This document shows, in pieces, positions 171 through 30,580 of a DNA stretch of 32,145 bases; positions within the stretch are counted from its first letter, which is position 1; each line of letters opens with the position of its first letter. The position numbers and the translations under genes are program-made. The notes beneath the pieces were generated by a model. The model made no database searches. It saw only the letters and a program-made list of their open reading frames with translations, and was not told where the DNA came from. Origin of the DNA: Candidatus Kaiserbacteria bacterium RIFOXYD1_FULL_42_15 (GTDB lineage: Bacteria > Patescibacteriota > Minisyncoccia > Phycocordibacterales > UBA918); the NCBI GenBank assembly GCA_001783565.1, contig MFMT01000042.1, positions 29,408-61,552 on the forward strand, read 5' to 3'.

Positions 171-828
171 CAGTAACAAAAATCAGCTCAACTTTTTAGT
201 TGGGCGATTTTTTGTCTGTGCGCCGGGAGTGAGTGATTTAATATCACTCACGTAAGGATTTGAAGCCCGATTGAGCTGGATTATGAGTGAAGCGAAATAA
301 TCCAGCCAATTGGGGTACTGAACATGTAATGTTCAAATCCTTCCCGACGCACCAAATACCAAAACTCAAGCGACAGCTTGAGTTTTGTTGTATTTGGTAG
401 CGCCGGGAAGGATTTGAAAGACGAAGCCGGGGCCCCTCTGGGCCGGCGAGTCGGGGTCGAGCGAATGAGATATTTTGTGAATGAAATGAAACAAAATATC
501 CATGAGAGTGACCAAATCCTTCCCGACGCACGCGTATAAAAATCAGCTCAAGCTTTTGCTTGGGCGATTTTTATTGCGTGCGCCGGGAGCAAGCAAATAG
601 TTTTGCTTGCGTAAGGATTTGAAAGCCACAGCGATGTAGCTTTGCTACGAGCGAGGCGGGTGAGAAGTGATTTGACATCACTTCGCAAGACCTTGCCCGC
701 TATCTTTGAAGCGAAGCGAAAAGTAACGACAAGGTGTACAGAATTCGTAGAATTCGCGAACACTTTGTAGAATTGAACGTAGTGAAAATTATACTTAGTG
801 ATTCGTGTTCAAATCCTTCCCGGCGCAC
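171..828 (+). repeat. Array of tRNA-Tyr 3'-end copies (3 inverted, 3 direct) separated by palindromic modules
   Basis: Inverted copies at about 217-264, 400-418 and 578-623; direct copies (GTT)CAAATCCTTCCCG(A/G)CGCA at 331-354, 513-531 and 807-828. Confidence 0.93.
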
Positions 829-830
829 TC

Positions 831-9329: not shown

Positions 9330-9675
9330 CAATGTAATAGTACGTCAGATTTTTATCTGGCGTACTATTACATTTGCCCCAGGGACTTGAAGAGGTTGCC
9401 TGCTAGATTATGAGCTAGCGAAATAATCTAGCGACAACCTGTACTGAACTCGTAGAGTTCAAGTCCCGCTCCCGGCACAAATTAAAAACTATCATTCTTG
9501 AGAGTTTTTAATTTGTGCCGGGAAGAAAGCAAACTGCTTTGCTTTCGGGCGGGACTTGAAAGGCGGAGCGACGTGAGTTTACGAACAAGCGAGCCAGGGT
9601 CGTGAGCGATATATTTTTAAGGAGTTCACGACTATAAAAATAATCGACTCCTGACCAAGTCCCGCTCCCGGCACA
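9330..9675 (+). repeat. Array of tRNA-Leu(TAA) 3'-end copies (2 inverted, 2 direct)
   Basis: Inverted 9376-9391 (degenerate) and 9514-9560; direct 9457-9479 and 9656-9675 (CAAGTCCCGCTCCCGGCACA). Confidence 0.92.
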
Positions 9676-10189: not shown

Positions 10190-10339
10190 CAAAAGAAAAA
10201 CCGTCCCGCAAGGGCGGTTTTTTGACTGCGCGAGAAGTAGTGTGTGGGACACACTACGGGAGGACTTGAAGAGGTTGCCAGCTCTTTTGAAAAAAGAGCG
10301 ACAACCTGTACTGAACTCGTAGAGTTCAAGTCCTCTCTC
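10190..10339 (+). repeat. Terminator-like hairpin, then tRNA-Leu(TAG) 3'-end inverted copy, module and direct copy
   Basis: Hairpin 10196-10223; inverted copy 10227-10270; direct copy GTTCAAGTCCTCTCTC 10324-10339. Confidence 0.9.
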
Positions 10340-23085: not shown

Positions 23086-23164
23086 TTATCAATCTGCGAG
23101 GTCAGACCCCACAGATTGGGTGATGTTGTGGCGAAAGGTAAAAAACTTAAGGGTAGGGCTTTTT

Positions 23165-24593: not shown

Positions 24594-25766
24594 ATGCATA
24601 CAGAATGTAGTCCAACTGAGTTTTTGAAAATTGCTTCTCATACCGCCGAATATTTTGGGTTTAAAACAATAGAGGTGTTACGTAAAGATCCGATTTGTAA
24701 AAGTTGCGAAACTACCCTATCACATACAATTACTAAAGAAGATAGCCGACTCGATAATGCTAGCGGGTTAATTACTCGTGGGTTAGAGGTCTTCTGTAAC
24801 GAAAATCTACATGCTATTAATGGTCCAGTTTTGCTTTATACGATAGATACTACTGACACTAATGAAACAGCTGTTTCTTTTCATATTTTTAATGTTCAAA
24901 AAAGTATTGCCGAGGCCATATTGATTCAGCTTAGTCATGCTCTGACGGGAGAACTTGGCTACACAGACTATGTGGTTAAAATTAACTCCTTAGGTGACAG
25001 TGACTCAATGATTCGCTACAGTCGTGAAATAACCAATTTTTTGCGTAAACGTTTGGATTCAATGCCTCAAGAGGCCCGTGAACTAATGAAAGTACACGCT
25101 TTTACTGCTCTCCAATATCTAGTAGAACAAGGACATGAACTATCTCTTAAAAGTCCTAGTCCATTGGAATATTTAAGTGACCAGAGCCGTAAACACTTTC
25201 GCGACATTATTGAATATTTAGATATGAGTGCCACTCCTTATGAAATCGATCCAAAAATGCTTGCTCATCATGAGTATTATTCTGACACCCTATTTTCTAT
25301 CGACTTGCCGGCCATGACAGGAATGTCTACACCATCGCTCAGTTTGCGTGGTGGACGTTTTGATGAGTATGTTGAGCGTAAAACTCACCACCACACACCA
25401 GCCGTCGGTGCGGTCGCTATCCTACACGAAAAACCATCCCCTGCCCGTAATCCTCGTTTTAAGCTCCAGACACCAATTATTTATATAATTCAGCTTGGTT
25501 TTGGTCCCAAAATCAGAAGTTTGATGATAATCGATGAGTTACGTAAAGAAGGTATTTCAGTTTACCAAGACCTTGCCAACGATTCACTGTCAGCCCAACT
25601 TCGTAATGCTGAAGCGTGTGGTGTTAAATACGTTATTATTATCGGTCAAAAAGAATTCGTTGATGGTACAGTCATTTTGCGCGACATGGAAGCAAGAAGA
25701 CAGGAACCAATTCCGTGCGAAGCATTGCTACGAAAATTAAAACGAAATAATACCGTCACTGTCTAG
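24594..25766 (+). CDS. Degenerate histidyl-tRNA synthetase paralogue with HGTP anticodon-binding domain
   Basis: HisRS-like 'VKINSLGD', 'YEIDPKM...YYSDTLF', 'GGRFD', 'PAVG' and C-terminal 'LSAQLRNA...IIIGQKE...VILRDM'; motif 2 not recognisable. Confidence 0.75.
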   Translation: MHTECSPTEFLKIASHTAEYFGFKTIEVLRKDPICKSCETTLSHTITKEDSRLDNASGLITRGLEVFCNENLHAINGPVLLYTIDTTDTNETAVSFHIFNVQKSIAEAILIQLSHALTGELGYTDYVVKINSLGDSDSMIRYSREITNFLRKRLDSMPQEARELMKVHAFTALQYLVEQGHELSLKSPSPLEYLSDQSRKHFRDIIEYLDMSATPYEIDPKMLAHHEYYSDTLFSIDLPAMTGMSTPSLSLRGGRFDEYVERKTHHHTPAVGAVAILHEKPSPARNPRFKLQTPIIYIIQLGFGPKIRSLMIIDELRKEGISVYQDLANDSLSAQLRNAEACGVKYVIIIGQKEFVDGTVILRDMEARRQEPIPCEALLRKLKRNNTVTV

Positions 25767-25823: not shown

Positions 25824-26602
25824 GGATTGCCTGCCTGCACATGTATAACACCTAACGAGCCAGCAGGTGGGCTTCATGACGACTTGCAAAAACGGTAGTC
25901 TTCGTCATTGCGAGAAGGGTGACCGCAGTCTAATGACGTGGCAAATCCATGACCGTACAGAAACGTGGATTGCTTCGTTGTGACTCGCAAAGACGGGTAC
26001 GAAGAACGACACCCCACCATCGTCTTTGCGAGGAATGAGCTGGCAAGCAAATGACGTGGCAATCCACACCATCACCGTCTTTGAGGAGGGAGCTGGCAAG
26101 CGTGAAAAAGTGACTCAATGTTGTGTAAAATAATAAGCGTAGCGACTATATTTTTCATACATAGAATTTTTTATCCTTAATAAAAATTCTTGCACTTTGC
26201 AGCCAACTTGAGCTGGTTTGTACCCACCTTTAGCTGCGAGCAAAGCGTGGCAGGAAATAAAATAGCCAATGAGTGGACAGTCCCTGTTAAGGTGAGAAAT
26301 GTCTGGGTGAGAAAGTCCAGTGGACTTTCTCAAGAGGTTGCCTACTATTTTGCAAAAATAGCGTCAACCTGAACAGCTTCTGTATAGAAGACATTTCGCA
26401 GCCACATTGAGCTAGTTTTACCCACCTTTAGCTGCGAGCGAAGCGTGGCAGGAAATAAAGTAGCCAATGAGTGGACAGTCCCTGTTAAGGTGAGAAAAGC
26501 ATGGGATGCTTTTCGCAAGACTCATTGAGGGATTTTGTGAGTGCAACTAAACAAAATACCCAATGAGTGGACAGTCCCTGTAAGGGAGCAACGTGGTGAT
26601 CC
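25824..26602 (+). repeat. Large composite CGTC-type repeat cluster with tandem and nested modules
   Basis: Multiple CGTC arms; about 100-bp direct repeat 26195-26299/26395-26498; CAATGAGTGGACAGTCCCTGT three times. Confidence 0.92.
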
Positions 26603-26780
26603 AGGATAATTACTGAGTGTATTGTTTCTTGAAACCTTTAGCTACCTCTTAAACGAAAGGTGGTTTTTGGGGTGGGGTACTAGGAAGTTTCTTTGGCCCA
26701 GAAATAGTCAAGAATTAATTAGTATGGGTAATTTGTTACCTTGCACTTTTTCTTCAGGAATGCTATGCTCTTGCCCACAT

Positions 26781-30245: not shown

Positions 30246-30293
30246 TTTTTGCGACGCTCAAAGCTTAAATAAGATTTGATCGGCAAAACACTG

Positions 30294-30453
30294 GTGCAGC
30301 GGGGCGTAGCGGAATGACACAGCAATCTAGAGTGGCGATGTGGATTACCGCATTGTGACTCGCCTGTCTGCGCAGGCAGGCAAAGACGCGGGGGGTGTAA
30401 TCCACCATCGTCTTCGCGAGGAATGAGCTGGCAAGCGAATGACGTGGCGATCC
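30294..30453 (+). repeat. CGTC-type repeat cluster
   Basis: GGATTACC...GACTCGCCTGTCTGCGCAGGCAGGCAAAGACG and CGTCTTCGCGAGGAATGAGCTGGCAAGCGAATGACGTGGCGATCC. Confidence 0.85.
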
Positions 30454-30580
30454 AGGACGACTACGTGACAATCTATATTGACTACCGGTAGCATTAAAAG
30501 TGGCAAGGTCATACACCACCATTGTTTTTTATGTTATGCTGTTCCTTGTTAAATAAAAATAAGCAACCTTTTGAAATTTT

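Follow-up and report, generated by a model that had tools for sequence, protein, structure and literature searches.

A CGTC-tagged REP unit interrupted by nested three-hairpin modules in an intergenic spacer of a Candidatus Kaiserbacteria genome

Layout of the interrupted REP unit

The window analysed here is a stretch of 32,145 nucleotides from Candidatus Kaiserbacteria bacterium RIFOXYD1_FULL_42_15, a groundwater member of the candidate phyla radiation whose 0.76-Mb assembly is 84% complete and consists of 43 contigs with N runs (this source genome is labelled G000, and its contigs G000:Cn or Cn). A HisRS-like gene, an S21-like open reading frame, YbeY, FtsA and FtsZ are neighbours in the window, and the intergenic spacer between two housekeeping genes is filled with small hairpin elements nested in hairpin loops.

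The spacer contains several REP units, which lie on the plus strand unless stated otherwise. Unit a (25902..25952), a CGTC-tagged variant of the 26-nt-loop class, was delimited from its sequence, direct repeat D3 and the loop classes, and also occurs in a related strain of 97% identity. It forms an inverted pair with unit b (25964..25996, minus strand), which belongs to the 10-nt-loop class by its sequence and its loop TCACAACGAA. Unit c (26021..26067) is uninterrupted and, by direct repeats D3 and D4 and the loop classes, is of the 26-nt-loop class; the alignment with the related strain ends within it, at 26066. Unit d is the interrupted host, with its 5' half at 26077..26102 and its 3' half at 26588..26605. 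The sequence-only reading that preceded this analysis had taken as the two arms 26090-26102, the last 13 nt of the 5' half, and 26591-26602, and had used as its uninterrupted comparator the REP unit at 30409..30454. The related strain has an uninterrupted REP with the same terminal bases as the 3' half of unit d, followed by the same right flank. Directly after the REP comes a repeat some 105 nt long, bearing a terminator-like hairpin and a T run (26606..26680, plus strand), of which three further copies exist (C2:218-324, C17:6883-7028 and C16:12291-12400); the hairpin was not among the calls of the terminator scan.

Units of this kind are abundant in the genome. The 5' motif GTC.TYGCGAG was found 247 times, usually preceded by C, and 201 of these occurrences have the 3' motif GC(A/G)ATCCA downstream. 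CGTC-tagged REPs are recognised by an unpaired CGTC (or TGTC/CCTC) tag with a short CCA-like tail at the opposite end, and the host units conform to this; instead of a stem of 8-9 bp around a loop of 4-5 nt, however, they have only about 4-5 complementary bases around the loop. Loop lengths fall into classes of 8-10, 25-27, 32-34, 44 and more than 80 nt, reaching over 800 nt, and the loops contain modules, a 32-mer or an 18-nt palindrome.

From 26077 to 26605 the sequence reads as a CGTC-tagged REP unit interrupted by three head-to-tail modules of three hairpins each. All parts of this arrangement proposed earlier are present, no more than a few bases from the positions first given. Module 1 (26103..26292, plus strand) has the AAAGTG type of hairpin 1 and two secondary inserts. 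The first, in hairpin 1, is a 71-nt AT-rich element (26122..26192, plus strand); a different insert had indeed been noticed at this place, but its length had been put at about 80 nt. An uninterrupted paralogue (G000:C38:7685-7804) fixes the bounds of this element exactly and reveals no target duplication. The AT-rich element has at least 11 copies in the genome; most of those shown are in module hairpin 1, and two are in another kind of hairpin. Neither a promoter nor a terminator could be assigned to the insert, with 3 promoter-like sites as compared to 1.9 +/- 1.7 in shuffled sequences and no call from the terminator scan. The second insert of module 1, a REP-like mini-hairpin of 32 nt, occupies the hairpin-2 tip (26223..26254, plus strand), and the same 32-mer is found in the corresponding place in module 2 (26421..26452, plus strand), so the shared middle-loop piece of the two modules recognised by the sequence-only reading is real. 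A 32-34 nt form of this piece also occupies the loop of 9 REP units.

Module 2 (26293..26490, plus strand) is interrupted in hairpin 1 by a complete inner module of 83 nt and three hairpins (26308..26390, plus strand), as had been proposed. Uninterrupted paralogues confirm this: compared with four such hairpins (C5:4162, C9:18265, C2:124 and C25:8939), the inserted piece is 26308-26388, and an nhmmer match at C42:55715-55794 provides further support. The uninterrupted hairpin 1 consists of arm, GGG and arm, with arms one base longer than first described. Module 3 (26491..26587, plus strand) is simple, uninterrupted and 97 nt long, as judged from its fold and from a covariance-model match of 98.2 bits (E 4.8e-19); the matches of the array modules, with E-values down to about 1e-19, exclude chance, as does the fold of the locus against shuffled sequences. 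The joint first described as ending in TGAGAA, here CCCTGTTAAGG followed directly by TGAGAA, was seen at both inter-module boundaries, 26292/26293 and 26490/26491. Both joints lie inside a 90-nt direct repeat of 93% identity (26218-26307 versus 26416-26505), and the 38-nt 3' end of the module occurs three times in the array.

A dispersed module family that enters DNA precisely

The modules form a dispersed family whose fold is conserved. Each measures 83-100 nt and forms hairpins H1, H2 and H3, with the invariant linkers ..TTYGCAAGA.. between H1 and H2 and ..GT.nACAG...CTGT.. at H3. The two ends are unlike each other: H1 begins 3 nt from the 5' end and H3 closes the 3' end, so that the module has hairpins beside both ends but no terminal inverted repeats, as in miniature elements of the IS200/IS605 kind. 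G000 contains 39 distinct simple modules, and nhmmer returned 83 matches, 52 of them near full length. A covariance-model search, which the sequence-only reading had suggested for parsing the copies, was run on the genus with model R1 and detected modules in 58 of 61 genomes, at 1 to at least 67 copies each, up to 68 candidates per genome being scored. Compensatory changes affect 18 of the 26 predicted pairs in G000 and relatives. Among 40 copies from five other genomes, aligned by fitting to the covariance model, 97.8% of cells are paired and 22 of the 26 pairs have changes on both sides; none of 500 shuffles reached this level, and controls in which the pairing was slid were 35-43% paired. 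Copies of one subfamily differ at 1-12 of 83 nt in all comparable pairs except for one outlier (57). Rfam 15 contains no match to the module, only tRNAs reaching the gathering score, and between 25800 and 26700 the best Rfam scores were 14.9 and 13.8 bits versus cut-offs of 65 and 53.

Modules enter DNA precisely, without target duplication and in one orientation relative to the host hairpin. Their targets are hairpin loops, or places next to such loops, in REPs, in other modules and in 5S rRNA and tRNA gene copies; module copies were found inside genes of the last two kinds. Three comparisons of filled and empty sites, in 5S rRNA, in hairpin 1 and for the AT-rich element, are clean and lack target duplication. 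In record L048, for example, an intact 5S rRNA copy adjoins a copy with two modules, one of which is inserted cleanly, with an ambiguity of 1 nt and nothing duplicated. Upstream of 30 of the 59 module 5' ends lies the REP 5' motif, on the same strand each time; the opposite orientation does not occur. Hairpin 1 of a module contains another module at 7 places by our count made by eye, and hairpin 3 is the site of an 85-nt element with 8 copies. These data support insertion at hairpins, either within the loop or at its edge, as the rule in this genome.

The bases bordering the modules are less sharply defined. TGAGAA is preceded by G in 43 of the 44 G000 matches beginning at model position 1, and a count by eye gave G in 36 of 40 copies of relatives; the dinucleotide before the module is mostly GG, AG or CG. 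A 5'-flanking GTG fits the target in some contexts and the element in others. The module ends are fixed only to within 2 nt, the 5S rRNA case and the REP and hairpin-1 cases fitting bounds two bases apart.

Candidate mobilising enzymes and related systems

We consider the locus to be, more probably than not, a real composite of non-coding miniature mobile elements that would have been inserted by an enzyme at hairpins and whose composites would have been spread by recombination. In this reading a CGTC-tagged REP unit has been opened near its centre by a three-hairpin element of 83-100 nt. The inserting enzyme would act in trans, recognise the hairpins and the invariant linkers, and place modules at extruded or single-stranded hairpins. 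Nested composites would then spread as units, and arrays would expand through recombination or duplication among like modules.

The best candidate for this enzyme, put forward tentatively, belongs to the HUH Y1 transposases (IS200/RAYT kind). G000 has five Y1_Tnp matches, namely one IS200 TnpA and four RAYT-like genes. Across 61 genomes the module count follows the Y1_Tnp count with a Spearman coefficient of 0.60, uncorrected for kinship, and this correlation may reflect merely the general load of mobile elements. A Y1 gene is present in 15 of the 16 genomes with at least 20 modules, and 9 genomes that lack any Y1 match hold 10-34 modules. The four RAYT-like proteins score 28.9-63.1 bits, below the cut-off of 80 for the NCBIfam REP-associated transposase (REP_Tyr_transpos), and there are no REP pairs or modules within 1.2 kb of their genes. 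The single IS200 (G000:C21:10702-11133) was rejected as the parent of the modules, its ends being unlike theirs and a second copy absent. Elements of the IS608 type are expected to show a replichore orientation bias, which was absent from the near-closed genome G007 (on the replichore led by the plus strand, 6 modules are plus and 4 minus; on that led by the minus strand, the numbers are 14 and 11; Fisher p = 1.0 for 35 matches). As to other enzymes, the 84% of the G000 genome at hand contains no RVT_1, the domain of retroelements, no TnpB-type domain and no rve; the Y2 (IS91-type) transposase gave no match, and control genomes were equally silent.

IS200/IS605-type insertion takes place 3' of a fixed tetra- or pentanucleotide. 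The modules differ in that their left flank is fixed only as G or GTG, in having no full-length parent with matching ends, in the lack of replichore bias in G007, and in a right-end hairpin that is variable and partly complementary to host bases. What they share with the single-strand "peel and paste" elements and their miniatures is the absence of terminal inverted repeats, hairpins near both ends, absence of target duplication, one target orientation, a short conserved left-flank motif and head-to-tail copies. Transposition of the IS200/IS605 kind is the subject of Lavatine et al. 2016 (PMC5027513).

A more speculative reading, to which we give a low probability, is that the modules represent a new kind of mobile DNA that seeks out hairpins, in which the 3' hairpin is matched to, or completed by, the first bases of the target, and in which a RAYT-like Y1 enzyme acts at hairpins that have been extruded, not at the replication fork. 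Site choice would then be guide-like, with subfamilies homing to REP loops, to one another's hairpins, to the T-arm region of tRNA genes or to 5S rRNA genes, and polar tandem arrays would form beside tRNA genes. Pairing by the 3' hairpin, if real, would be a new mode of target choice.

The host units resemble the CGTC-tagged REPs, for which Di Nocera et al. 2013 (PMC3733652) note that no dedicated transposase is known, as is true of the present units; the locus bears on this open question of what moves CGTC-type REPs. The likeness to CGTC REPs and to the REPIN-RAYT system (PMC3733652; Bertels and Rainey 2011, PMC3116915) extends to the CGTC start and CCA-like tail, to extragenic units that number hundreds and are often inverted neighbours, and to the presence of RAYT-like Y1 genes. 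In contrast, the described CGTC families have loops of 4-5 nt (PMC3733652), whereas here the stem is weak and loops measure 8-10, 26, 32-34 and from 80 to more than 800 nt. Unlike in REPIN-RAYT systems, the RAYT-like genes are not flanked by REPs, and the three-hairpin modules are not REPs. Mosaic intergenic regions of Neisseria, in which CGTC-1 (dRS3) repeats are interleaved with other families, resemble the spacer in the clustering of CGTC-type repeats with other repeat families (PMC3733652); here, however, the guests are inside the REP unit and one another's hairpin loops, and the sequences are unrelated. REPs are also hot spots for insertion sequences, according to Tobes and Pareja 2006 (PMC1525189), and G000 has an IS110-family element in a REP; such insertion sequences, in that account, are about 1 kb or more with their own transposase, whereas the guests here are non-coding and 32-100 nt long. 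Among the papers listed, our literature search found none linking candidate-phyla-radiation bacteria with REPs or miniature inverted-repeat elements, which is not proof of absence in print. In Nostoc, small dispersed repeats (SDR) of 21-27 nt reportedly insert into themselves in a nested manner, the known instance being cyanobacterial. They are said to be tiny, non-coding and of conserved secondary structure and to lie inside their own copies and other repeats, as do the modules, which differ in having 83-100 nt, three hairpins and an unrelated sequence, and in occurring in a candidate-phyla-radiation genus.

Bacteria of this radiation are regarded as extremely streamlined. At least 4.3% of the 0.76-Mb assembly is nevertheless made up of short dispersed repeats with at least 3 other copies each. 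Very small genomes can thus host busy populations of miniature mobile elements, one family of which is common to nearly the whole genus, and the modules provide an unusual natural set of sites, filled and empty, for tiny non-coding elements that target hairpins.

Among the alternatives to a Y1 enzyme we regard as doubtful a site-specific recombinase acting on folded hairpins, either of the IS110 bridge-RNA type or a tyrosine recombinase, with arrays growing at a regenerated target. Tyrosine recombinases act on single-stranded hairpins at integron attC sites and in CTX phage. An IS110-family element in G000 (C4:8-1384) is itself inside a REP unit, between bases of the REP 5' motif, and has a 300-nt non-coding tail with REP-like stretches, but it cuts the REP elsewhere than the modules do. 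IS110-family genes were detected in only 8 of 61 genomes, as compared to 58 with modules, and are absent from the module-rich G001, G050, G018 and G007. One Phage_integrase gene is present in the genome, and, in the window, units that follow tRNA-Tyr (172-830) and two tRNA-Leu genes (9331-9479 and 10191-10338) resemble integration at a tRNA end, since they begin with an inverted tRNA 3' end, continue with module parts and close with a direct tRNA 3' copy. Against this, no integrase gene adjoins the arrays in the window, and the modules have no duplicated flanking core dinucleotide.

The modules might instead be a multi-copy structured RNA, either a small RNA or a cis-acting mRNA element, with expansion segments in its loops and with the array as tandem RNA genes. 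The strong covariation of H1 and H2 and the invariant unpaired linkers across distant genomes would suit such an RNA. So would the fold of the 533-nt locus, far above shuffles (z = -6.6 versus 100 shuffles), and its position between a gene end and a terminator-like hairpin, which would allow a 3' untranslated region. G-U pairs, however, are without strand asymmetry (44 of 1219 on the module strand versus 56 of 1224 on the complement), and orientation is independent of the genes, with 24 sense and 17 antisense modules between co-directional genes. The genus alone spans copy numbers from 0 to more than 60, copies are present inside 5S rRNA and tRNA gene copies, presence differs between strains of 97% identity, and no Rfam family matches. 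Together these observations render an RNA improbable. Hammerhead and hairpin ribozymes and group II intron ends were also rejected, positions required by their motifs varying among the copies when inspected by eye.

Composites, strain alleles and assembly

Nested composites recur elsewhere in G000 as units. Module 2 with its inner module is found again at C42:21945-22144 (96%) and C17:6980-7188 (88-90%), and its nested joints recur at C28:13193-13312, where the host module differs further on. Similarly, the left REP arm together with module 1, its insert and the 32-mer recurs on C43, C36, C28, C13 and C33 (91-97%), the copies of module 1 being full-length on the first three and shortened on C13 and C33. 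The 90-nt repeat across both joints is as a local duplication would give. From the recurrence of composites and this duplication, the array probably consists mostly of inherited building blocks plus a local duplication and is not a stepwise local record. Insertion into hairpin loops, as proposed from the sequence, stands, but the idea of an array that records successive events in order, built at this place event by event, is not supported. Nesting gives the relative order of old events, most of which did not take place at this locus. Neither a leader nor polarity was seen in the array, nor a constant repeat alternating with unique spacers. CRISPR and integron cassette arrays resemble it in the head-to-tail order of units only; leader or attI, attC-type site and adjacent cas or intI genes are absent, and the units are copies of dispersed repeats.

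Hybrid modules with mismatched bases at the foot of H2 (C17:7090 and C40:25784) support recombination between modules. They also raise the question of copying without any dedicated enzyme, in which loop contents would pass between sites by template switching or gene conversion through homology of the conserved hairpin arms, and tandems would arise by slippage. The existence of hybrids, the copying of whole composites, the position of the joints within the 90-nt duplication, the fixed orientation relative to the REP (30 to 0), the absence of target duplication, and the last bases of hairpin 3, which often coincide with host bases, all agree with it. As a general explanation it is nonetheless very unlikely. 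In REP-free relatives none of the 40 modules examined is part of a REP unit; their surroundings vary, and some of them are embedded in other conserved repeats or adjoin parts of tRNA genes. One module is in a 5S rRNA gene without matching arms, and the unpaired linkers, being invariant, point to a protein that recognises them. Enzyme-free copying could still account for the tandem part of what we otherwise interpret as an enzyme-inserted composite.

Modules are present or absent between close strains. Contigs L101 and L102, with flanks of 96.8-97.6% identity, lack window positions 26067-26581 and have one uninterrupted REP instead, an allele that could be a deletion through REP-REP recombination and not an empty site. 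In a contig of run X8, 25944 is joined to 26700 with 87 other letters between. The comparison of strains, which had been proposed for the polarity of unit addition, revealed close strains differing by whole blocks at the site. Elsewhere between G000 and the 97% strain, spacers have been replaced wholesale, with few clean indels. In other species of the genus the orthologous spacers measure 60-130 nt and are repeat-free and unrelated, and the closest HisRS is only 72% identical. In practical terms, the repeats cause spacer turnover between strains with 97% gene identity, break assemblies and create false open reading frames.

Misassembly, raised from the outset as a possible source of the nesting, would have misjoined dispersed repeats in a short-read metagenome bin; it has in its favour the 43 contigs with N runs, the 18 of 83 module matches at contig edges, and the lack of any listed public contig across the stretch, several joints leading to other copies. 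The public runs consist of short contigs broken in repeats, and the three-module order is without a spanning read or contig; array stretches that lack contig cover in X3 and X8 were left out as evidence. Junction unitigs from runs of two studies nevertheless have the single-copy depth of the flanks: those of X1 (26037-26112 and 26228-26292) have a depth of 9.2 versus 9.4-9.8, and those of X3 (26276-26343 and 26314-26394) have depths of 5.4 and 3.8 versus 5.4-6.8. An artefact is hardly credible, given also that these nested blocks are found at further loci, 3-12% divergent and with other flanks, that an independent metagenome assembly has the composite of hairpin 1 and AT-rich element (L101:9227-9325, 91%), that genomes of 1-6 contigs contain modules, and that other genomes have tandem or closely spaced modules.

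The nested locus and its host repeat

The nested array sits in a 1-kb intergenic spacer of the assembly under study (757 kb, 43 contigs, G+C ~42%, completeness 84%), of which the window covers positions 29408-61552 of contig C42. Upstream lies an ORF with a histidyl-tRNA-synthetase-type anticodon-binding domain (24594-25766), and downstream a small ORF starting near 26766, S21-like by eye with no Pfam match, that is followed by the genes YbeY, FtsA and FtsZ. The halves of a host REP unit (26077-26102 and 26588-26605) enclose three head-to-tail copies of a three-hairpin module (26103-26292, 26293-26490 and 26491-26587), and the two joints between them are identical. Further parts are an inner module (26308-26390), a 71-nt AT-rich insert (26122-26192) and two copies of a 32-mer (26223-26254 and 26421-26452), while a 90-nt direct repeat (93%) spans the 3' half of modules 1 and 2, joints included. 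Every item described in the sequence-only reading (REP halves, modules, joints, inserts and 32-mer) was located, and the nested feature is real and was accurately observed. As single-stranded DNA, the 533-nt locus has a folding z of -6.6. At four loci (window 26606-26680; G000:C2:218-324, C17:6883-7028 and C16:12291-12400, where G000 is the assembly and C-numbers its contigs), the 3' end of a REP is followed by a repeated element of ~105 nt that contains a terminator-like hairpin and a run of T.

The REP 5' motif has 247 copies in G000, with the 3' motif downstream in 201. The units bear a CGTC tag and a CCA-like tail, which Di Nocera et al. (PMC3733652) give as the defining marks of the CGTC-tagged REP superfamily, but the stems in G000 are weak. 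Loop lengths fall into discrete classes: 8-10 nt (90 units), 25-27 nt (51 units), 32-34 nt (9 units, the loop being the 32-mer of the locus, which has a REP-like core of its own), 44 nt (an extra 18-nt palindrome) and 80 to more than 800 nt (modules inside the unit). The palindrome, perfect or near-perfect and of the CCTGCC..GGCAGG type, lies in the 3' arm of some REPs, at window 30366-30390 and in several units genome-wide, and produces the 44-nt class. Within the genus, a strict REP pattern matched 12 of 61 genomes (122 matches in G000 and 77 in a relative, G001). Genome-wide in G000, 70 of the 247 5' motifs fall within crude ORF calls of at least 110 aa; REP arrays apparently give rise to false ORFs.

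A widespread family of three-hairpin modules

G000 holds 39 distinct simple modules, and an nhmmer search of it gave 83 matches, 52 of them near full length. The three-hairpin fold is common to all. In an alignment of 35 copies (from G000, three named records and four further genomes of the genus), the unpaired linkers are invariant and the stems variable; of 26 predicted pairs, 18 show compensatory changes. At least seven types of hairpin 3 exist, covarying as NNNC..GNNN. A second alignment, of 40 copies taken from five other genomes and fitted to the covariance model itself, had 97.8% of cells paired and both-sided changes at 22 of 26 pairs, which none of 500 shuffles matched (slid controls, 35-43% paired). 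By covariance model, 58 of the genus's 61 genomes have modules, at 1 to at least 67 copies per genome among the best 68 candidates scored in each. A strict module pattern also matches three named records, whose labels are Candidatus Kaiserbacteria, Minisyncoccia and "bacterium"; this puts the group in the candidate phyla radiation. An Rfam scan of the locus returned no family, and the module family is widespread and apparently undescribed.

Modules have neither G-U strand asymmetry nor a sense-strand preference relative to neighbouring genes (24 versus 17), observations that, at the level of sequence, would argue against an RNA role. They resemble known kinds of miniature mobile DNA and are new in form. 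Elhai reportedly described, in 2008, nested self-insertion of very small elements in Nostoc. REP units are known targets of full insertion sequences (PMC1525189), and in Neisseria CGTC REPs are interleaved with other repeats (PMC3733652). Among the literature matches listed, none linked the candidate phyla radiation to REP or miniature elements.

Insertion into hairpin loops and the order of the array

The sequence-only reading had proposed repeated insertion into hairpin loops, yielding an array that records successive events; the first part is supported and the second is not. Comparisons of filled and empty sites support the insertion. In L048, a record labelled Candidatus Kaiserbacteria, an intact 5S rRNA gene (1-99; Rfam 59 bits) adjoins a second 5S copy (153-440) that holds two modules in opposite orientations, one a clean insert with 1-nt ambiguity and no target duplication, the other clean save one base. 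(Further on, L048:605-720 is a third 5S 3' fragment, which also carries a module.) Four paralogous uninterrupted first hairpins set the inner module as an exact insert at 26308-26388, and the module at G000:C38:7685-7804 equals module 1 without the AT-rich element, which exactly bounds the 71-nt insert. A pattern found eight copies of an 85-nt element inside hairpin 3 in G000. Such ~85-nt elements have short terminal inverted repeats and sit in the hairpin 3 loop with CTGTA on both sides, on C43, C36 (two), C33, C13, C4 (two), C41, C32 and C42 outside the window; one copy is internally deleted. Modules in REPs have constant orientation: across 59 module 5' ends, 30 had a same-strand REP 5' motif upstream and none an opposite one. 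The base preceding the module start is G in 43 of 44 matches in G000 and, by eye, in 36 of 40 copies from relatives. In five relatives (four lacking a strict REP match, and G048 absent from the REP-pattern sample), modules lie outside REP units, some of them next to parts of tRNA genes or in conserved repeats of other kinds. Divergence within one subfamily is 1-12 of 83 nt, one outlier pair aside.

The array was not borne out as an ordered record of events, as nested blocks recur elsewhere as units. Module 2 with its inner module is copied at C42:21945-22144 (96%) and C17:6980-7188 (88-90%), C28:13193-13312 has the same nested joints in a host module that diverges further on, and the left arm with module 1 is found again at five loci. 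Recombination is shown by hybrid modules whose hairpin-2 bases are mismatched. Tandem joints are of two kinds, full hairpin 3 followed directly by AGAA.. (C41, C22, C10 and C2) and hairpin 3 minus its last two bases followed by TGAGAA (the studied locus, C28, C5, C9 and C25); both joints of the locus lie inside the 90-nt duplication. The array locus had no leader, polarity or unique content.

Between close strains, alleles at the locus differ by whole blocks. Metagenome contigs L101 and L102, whose flanking genes are 96.8-97.6% identical to those of the window, lack 26067-26581 and have just one, uninterrupted REP (26-nt-loop class) before the same right flank; a contig of sequencing run X8 passes from 25944 to 26700 through 87 other letters. 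Since these forms and the array differ, there are at least three alleles among close strains, and those of L101/L102 and X8 could each represent either a deletion between two REP units or an empty site. The two strains differ wholesale in other spacers too: genes are ~97% identical, yet whole intergenic spacers are swapped for different repeat contents (window 23087-23161 versus L101:220-499; 30274-30402 versus L101:7081-7221). In other species of the genus (HisRS identity at most 72%), the spacer is 60-130 nt and repeat-free, or occupied by other genes.

Misassembly of the array is unlikely. Public runs with the locus sequence were groundwater or aquifer metagenomes only and have it as short contigs, none spanning the array, and unitigs from runs of two studies cross the REP/module 1, module 1/module 2/inner module and inner module/host joints at the single-copy depth of the flanks. 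Nested blocks also occur elsewhere in G000, 3-12% diverged and with other flanks, as well as in an independent assembly; the order in which the three modules stand appears less secure.

Candidate enzyme and tRNA-linked units

Read as a whole, the locus is on balance probably a composite of mobile elements. Its modules were probably mobilised in trans at hairpins, and a Y1 enzyme (HUH class) is tentatively proposed as the most likely agent. G000 encodes one IS200 TnpA and four RAYT-like ORFs in which HUH-like and tyrosine motifs occur. It also has one integrase, one DDE_Tnp_1 and two genes of the IS110 family; searches of this 84%-complete genome for a reverse transcriptase, a TnpB-type domain and an rve domain were negative. 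The proposal draws on the correlation of module with Y1_Tnp counts (Spearman 0.60 over 61 genomes; a Y1 gene in 15 of 16 genomes with at least 20 modules; kinship ignored in both) and on the rarity of IS110. Weighed against it are that RAYT-like genes are not adjacent to REPs or modules in G000, that IS200 ends differ from module ends, and that module orientation in the relative G007 is independent of replichore (two contigs with a clear GC-skew switch). IS200 was rejected as the parent of modules on account of those ends, and IS110 genes, present in 8 of 61 genomes, are much too scarce. An IS110-family element (~1.38 kb) lies within a REP unit at G000:C4:1-1420, between ..GTCTTTG and CGAGGAGC..., and its 300-nt non-coding 3' tail has stretches similar to each of the REP ends, as might an RNA that guides targeting.

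Units related to modules also lie beside tRNA genes. Three tandem units (window 172-830) follow tRNA-Tyr (87-171). In each, the tRNA 3' end (~20 nt) is repeated in inverted form at the start and in direct form, after a terminator-like hairpin, at the finish; module hairpins lie inside, with a complete module at 661-742. The units look as if integration had recurred at a tRNA end that is regenerated. Module-like hairpins 2 and 3 also follow tRNA-Leu(taa) and tRNA-Leu(tag) (9331-9479 and 10191-10338); there the 3' arm of hairpin 3 continues as 16-24 nt that directly repeat the T-arm and acceptor end of that tRNA, and an inverted copy of those bases lies upstream. In L084:1476-1734, from G048, the first 24 nt of tRNA-Asn and upstream bases are duplicated, the upstream copy directly abutting a module; 160 nt later comes the intact tRNA-Asn, and a second module with tRNA T-arm fragments lies beyond it. 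L096, from the relative G062, has a similar D-arm-like left flank.
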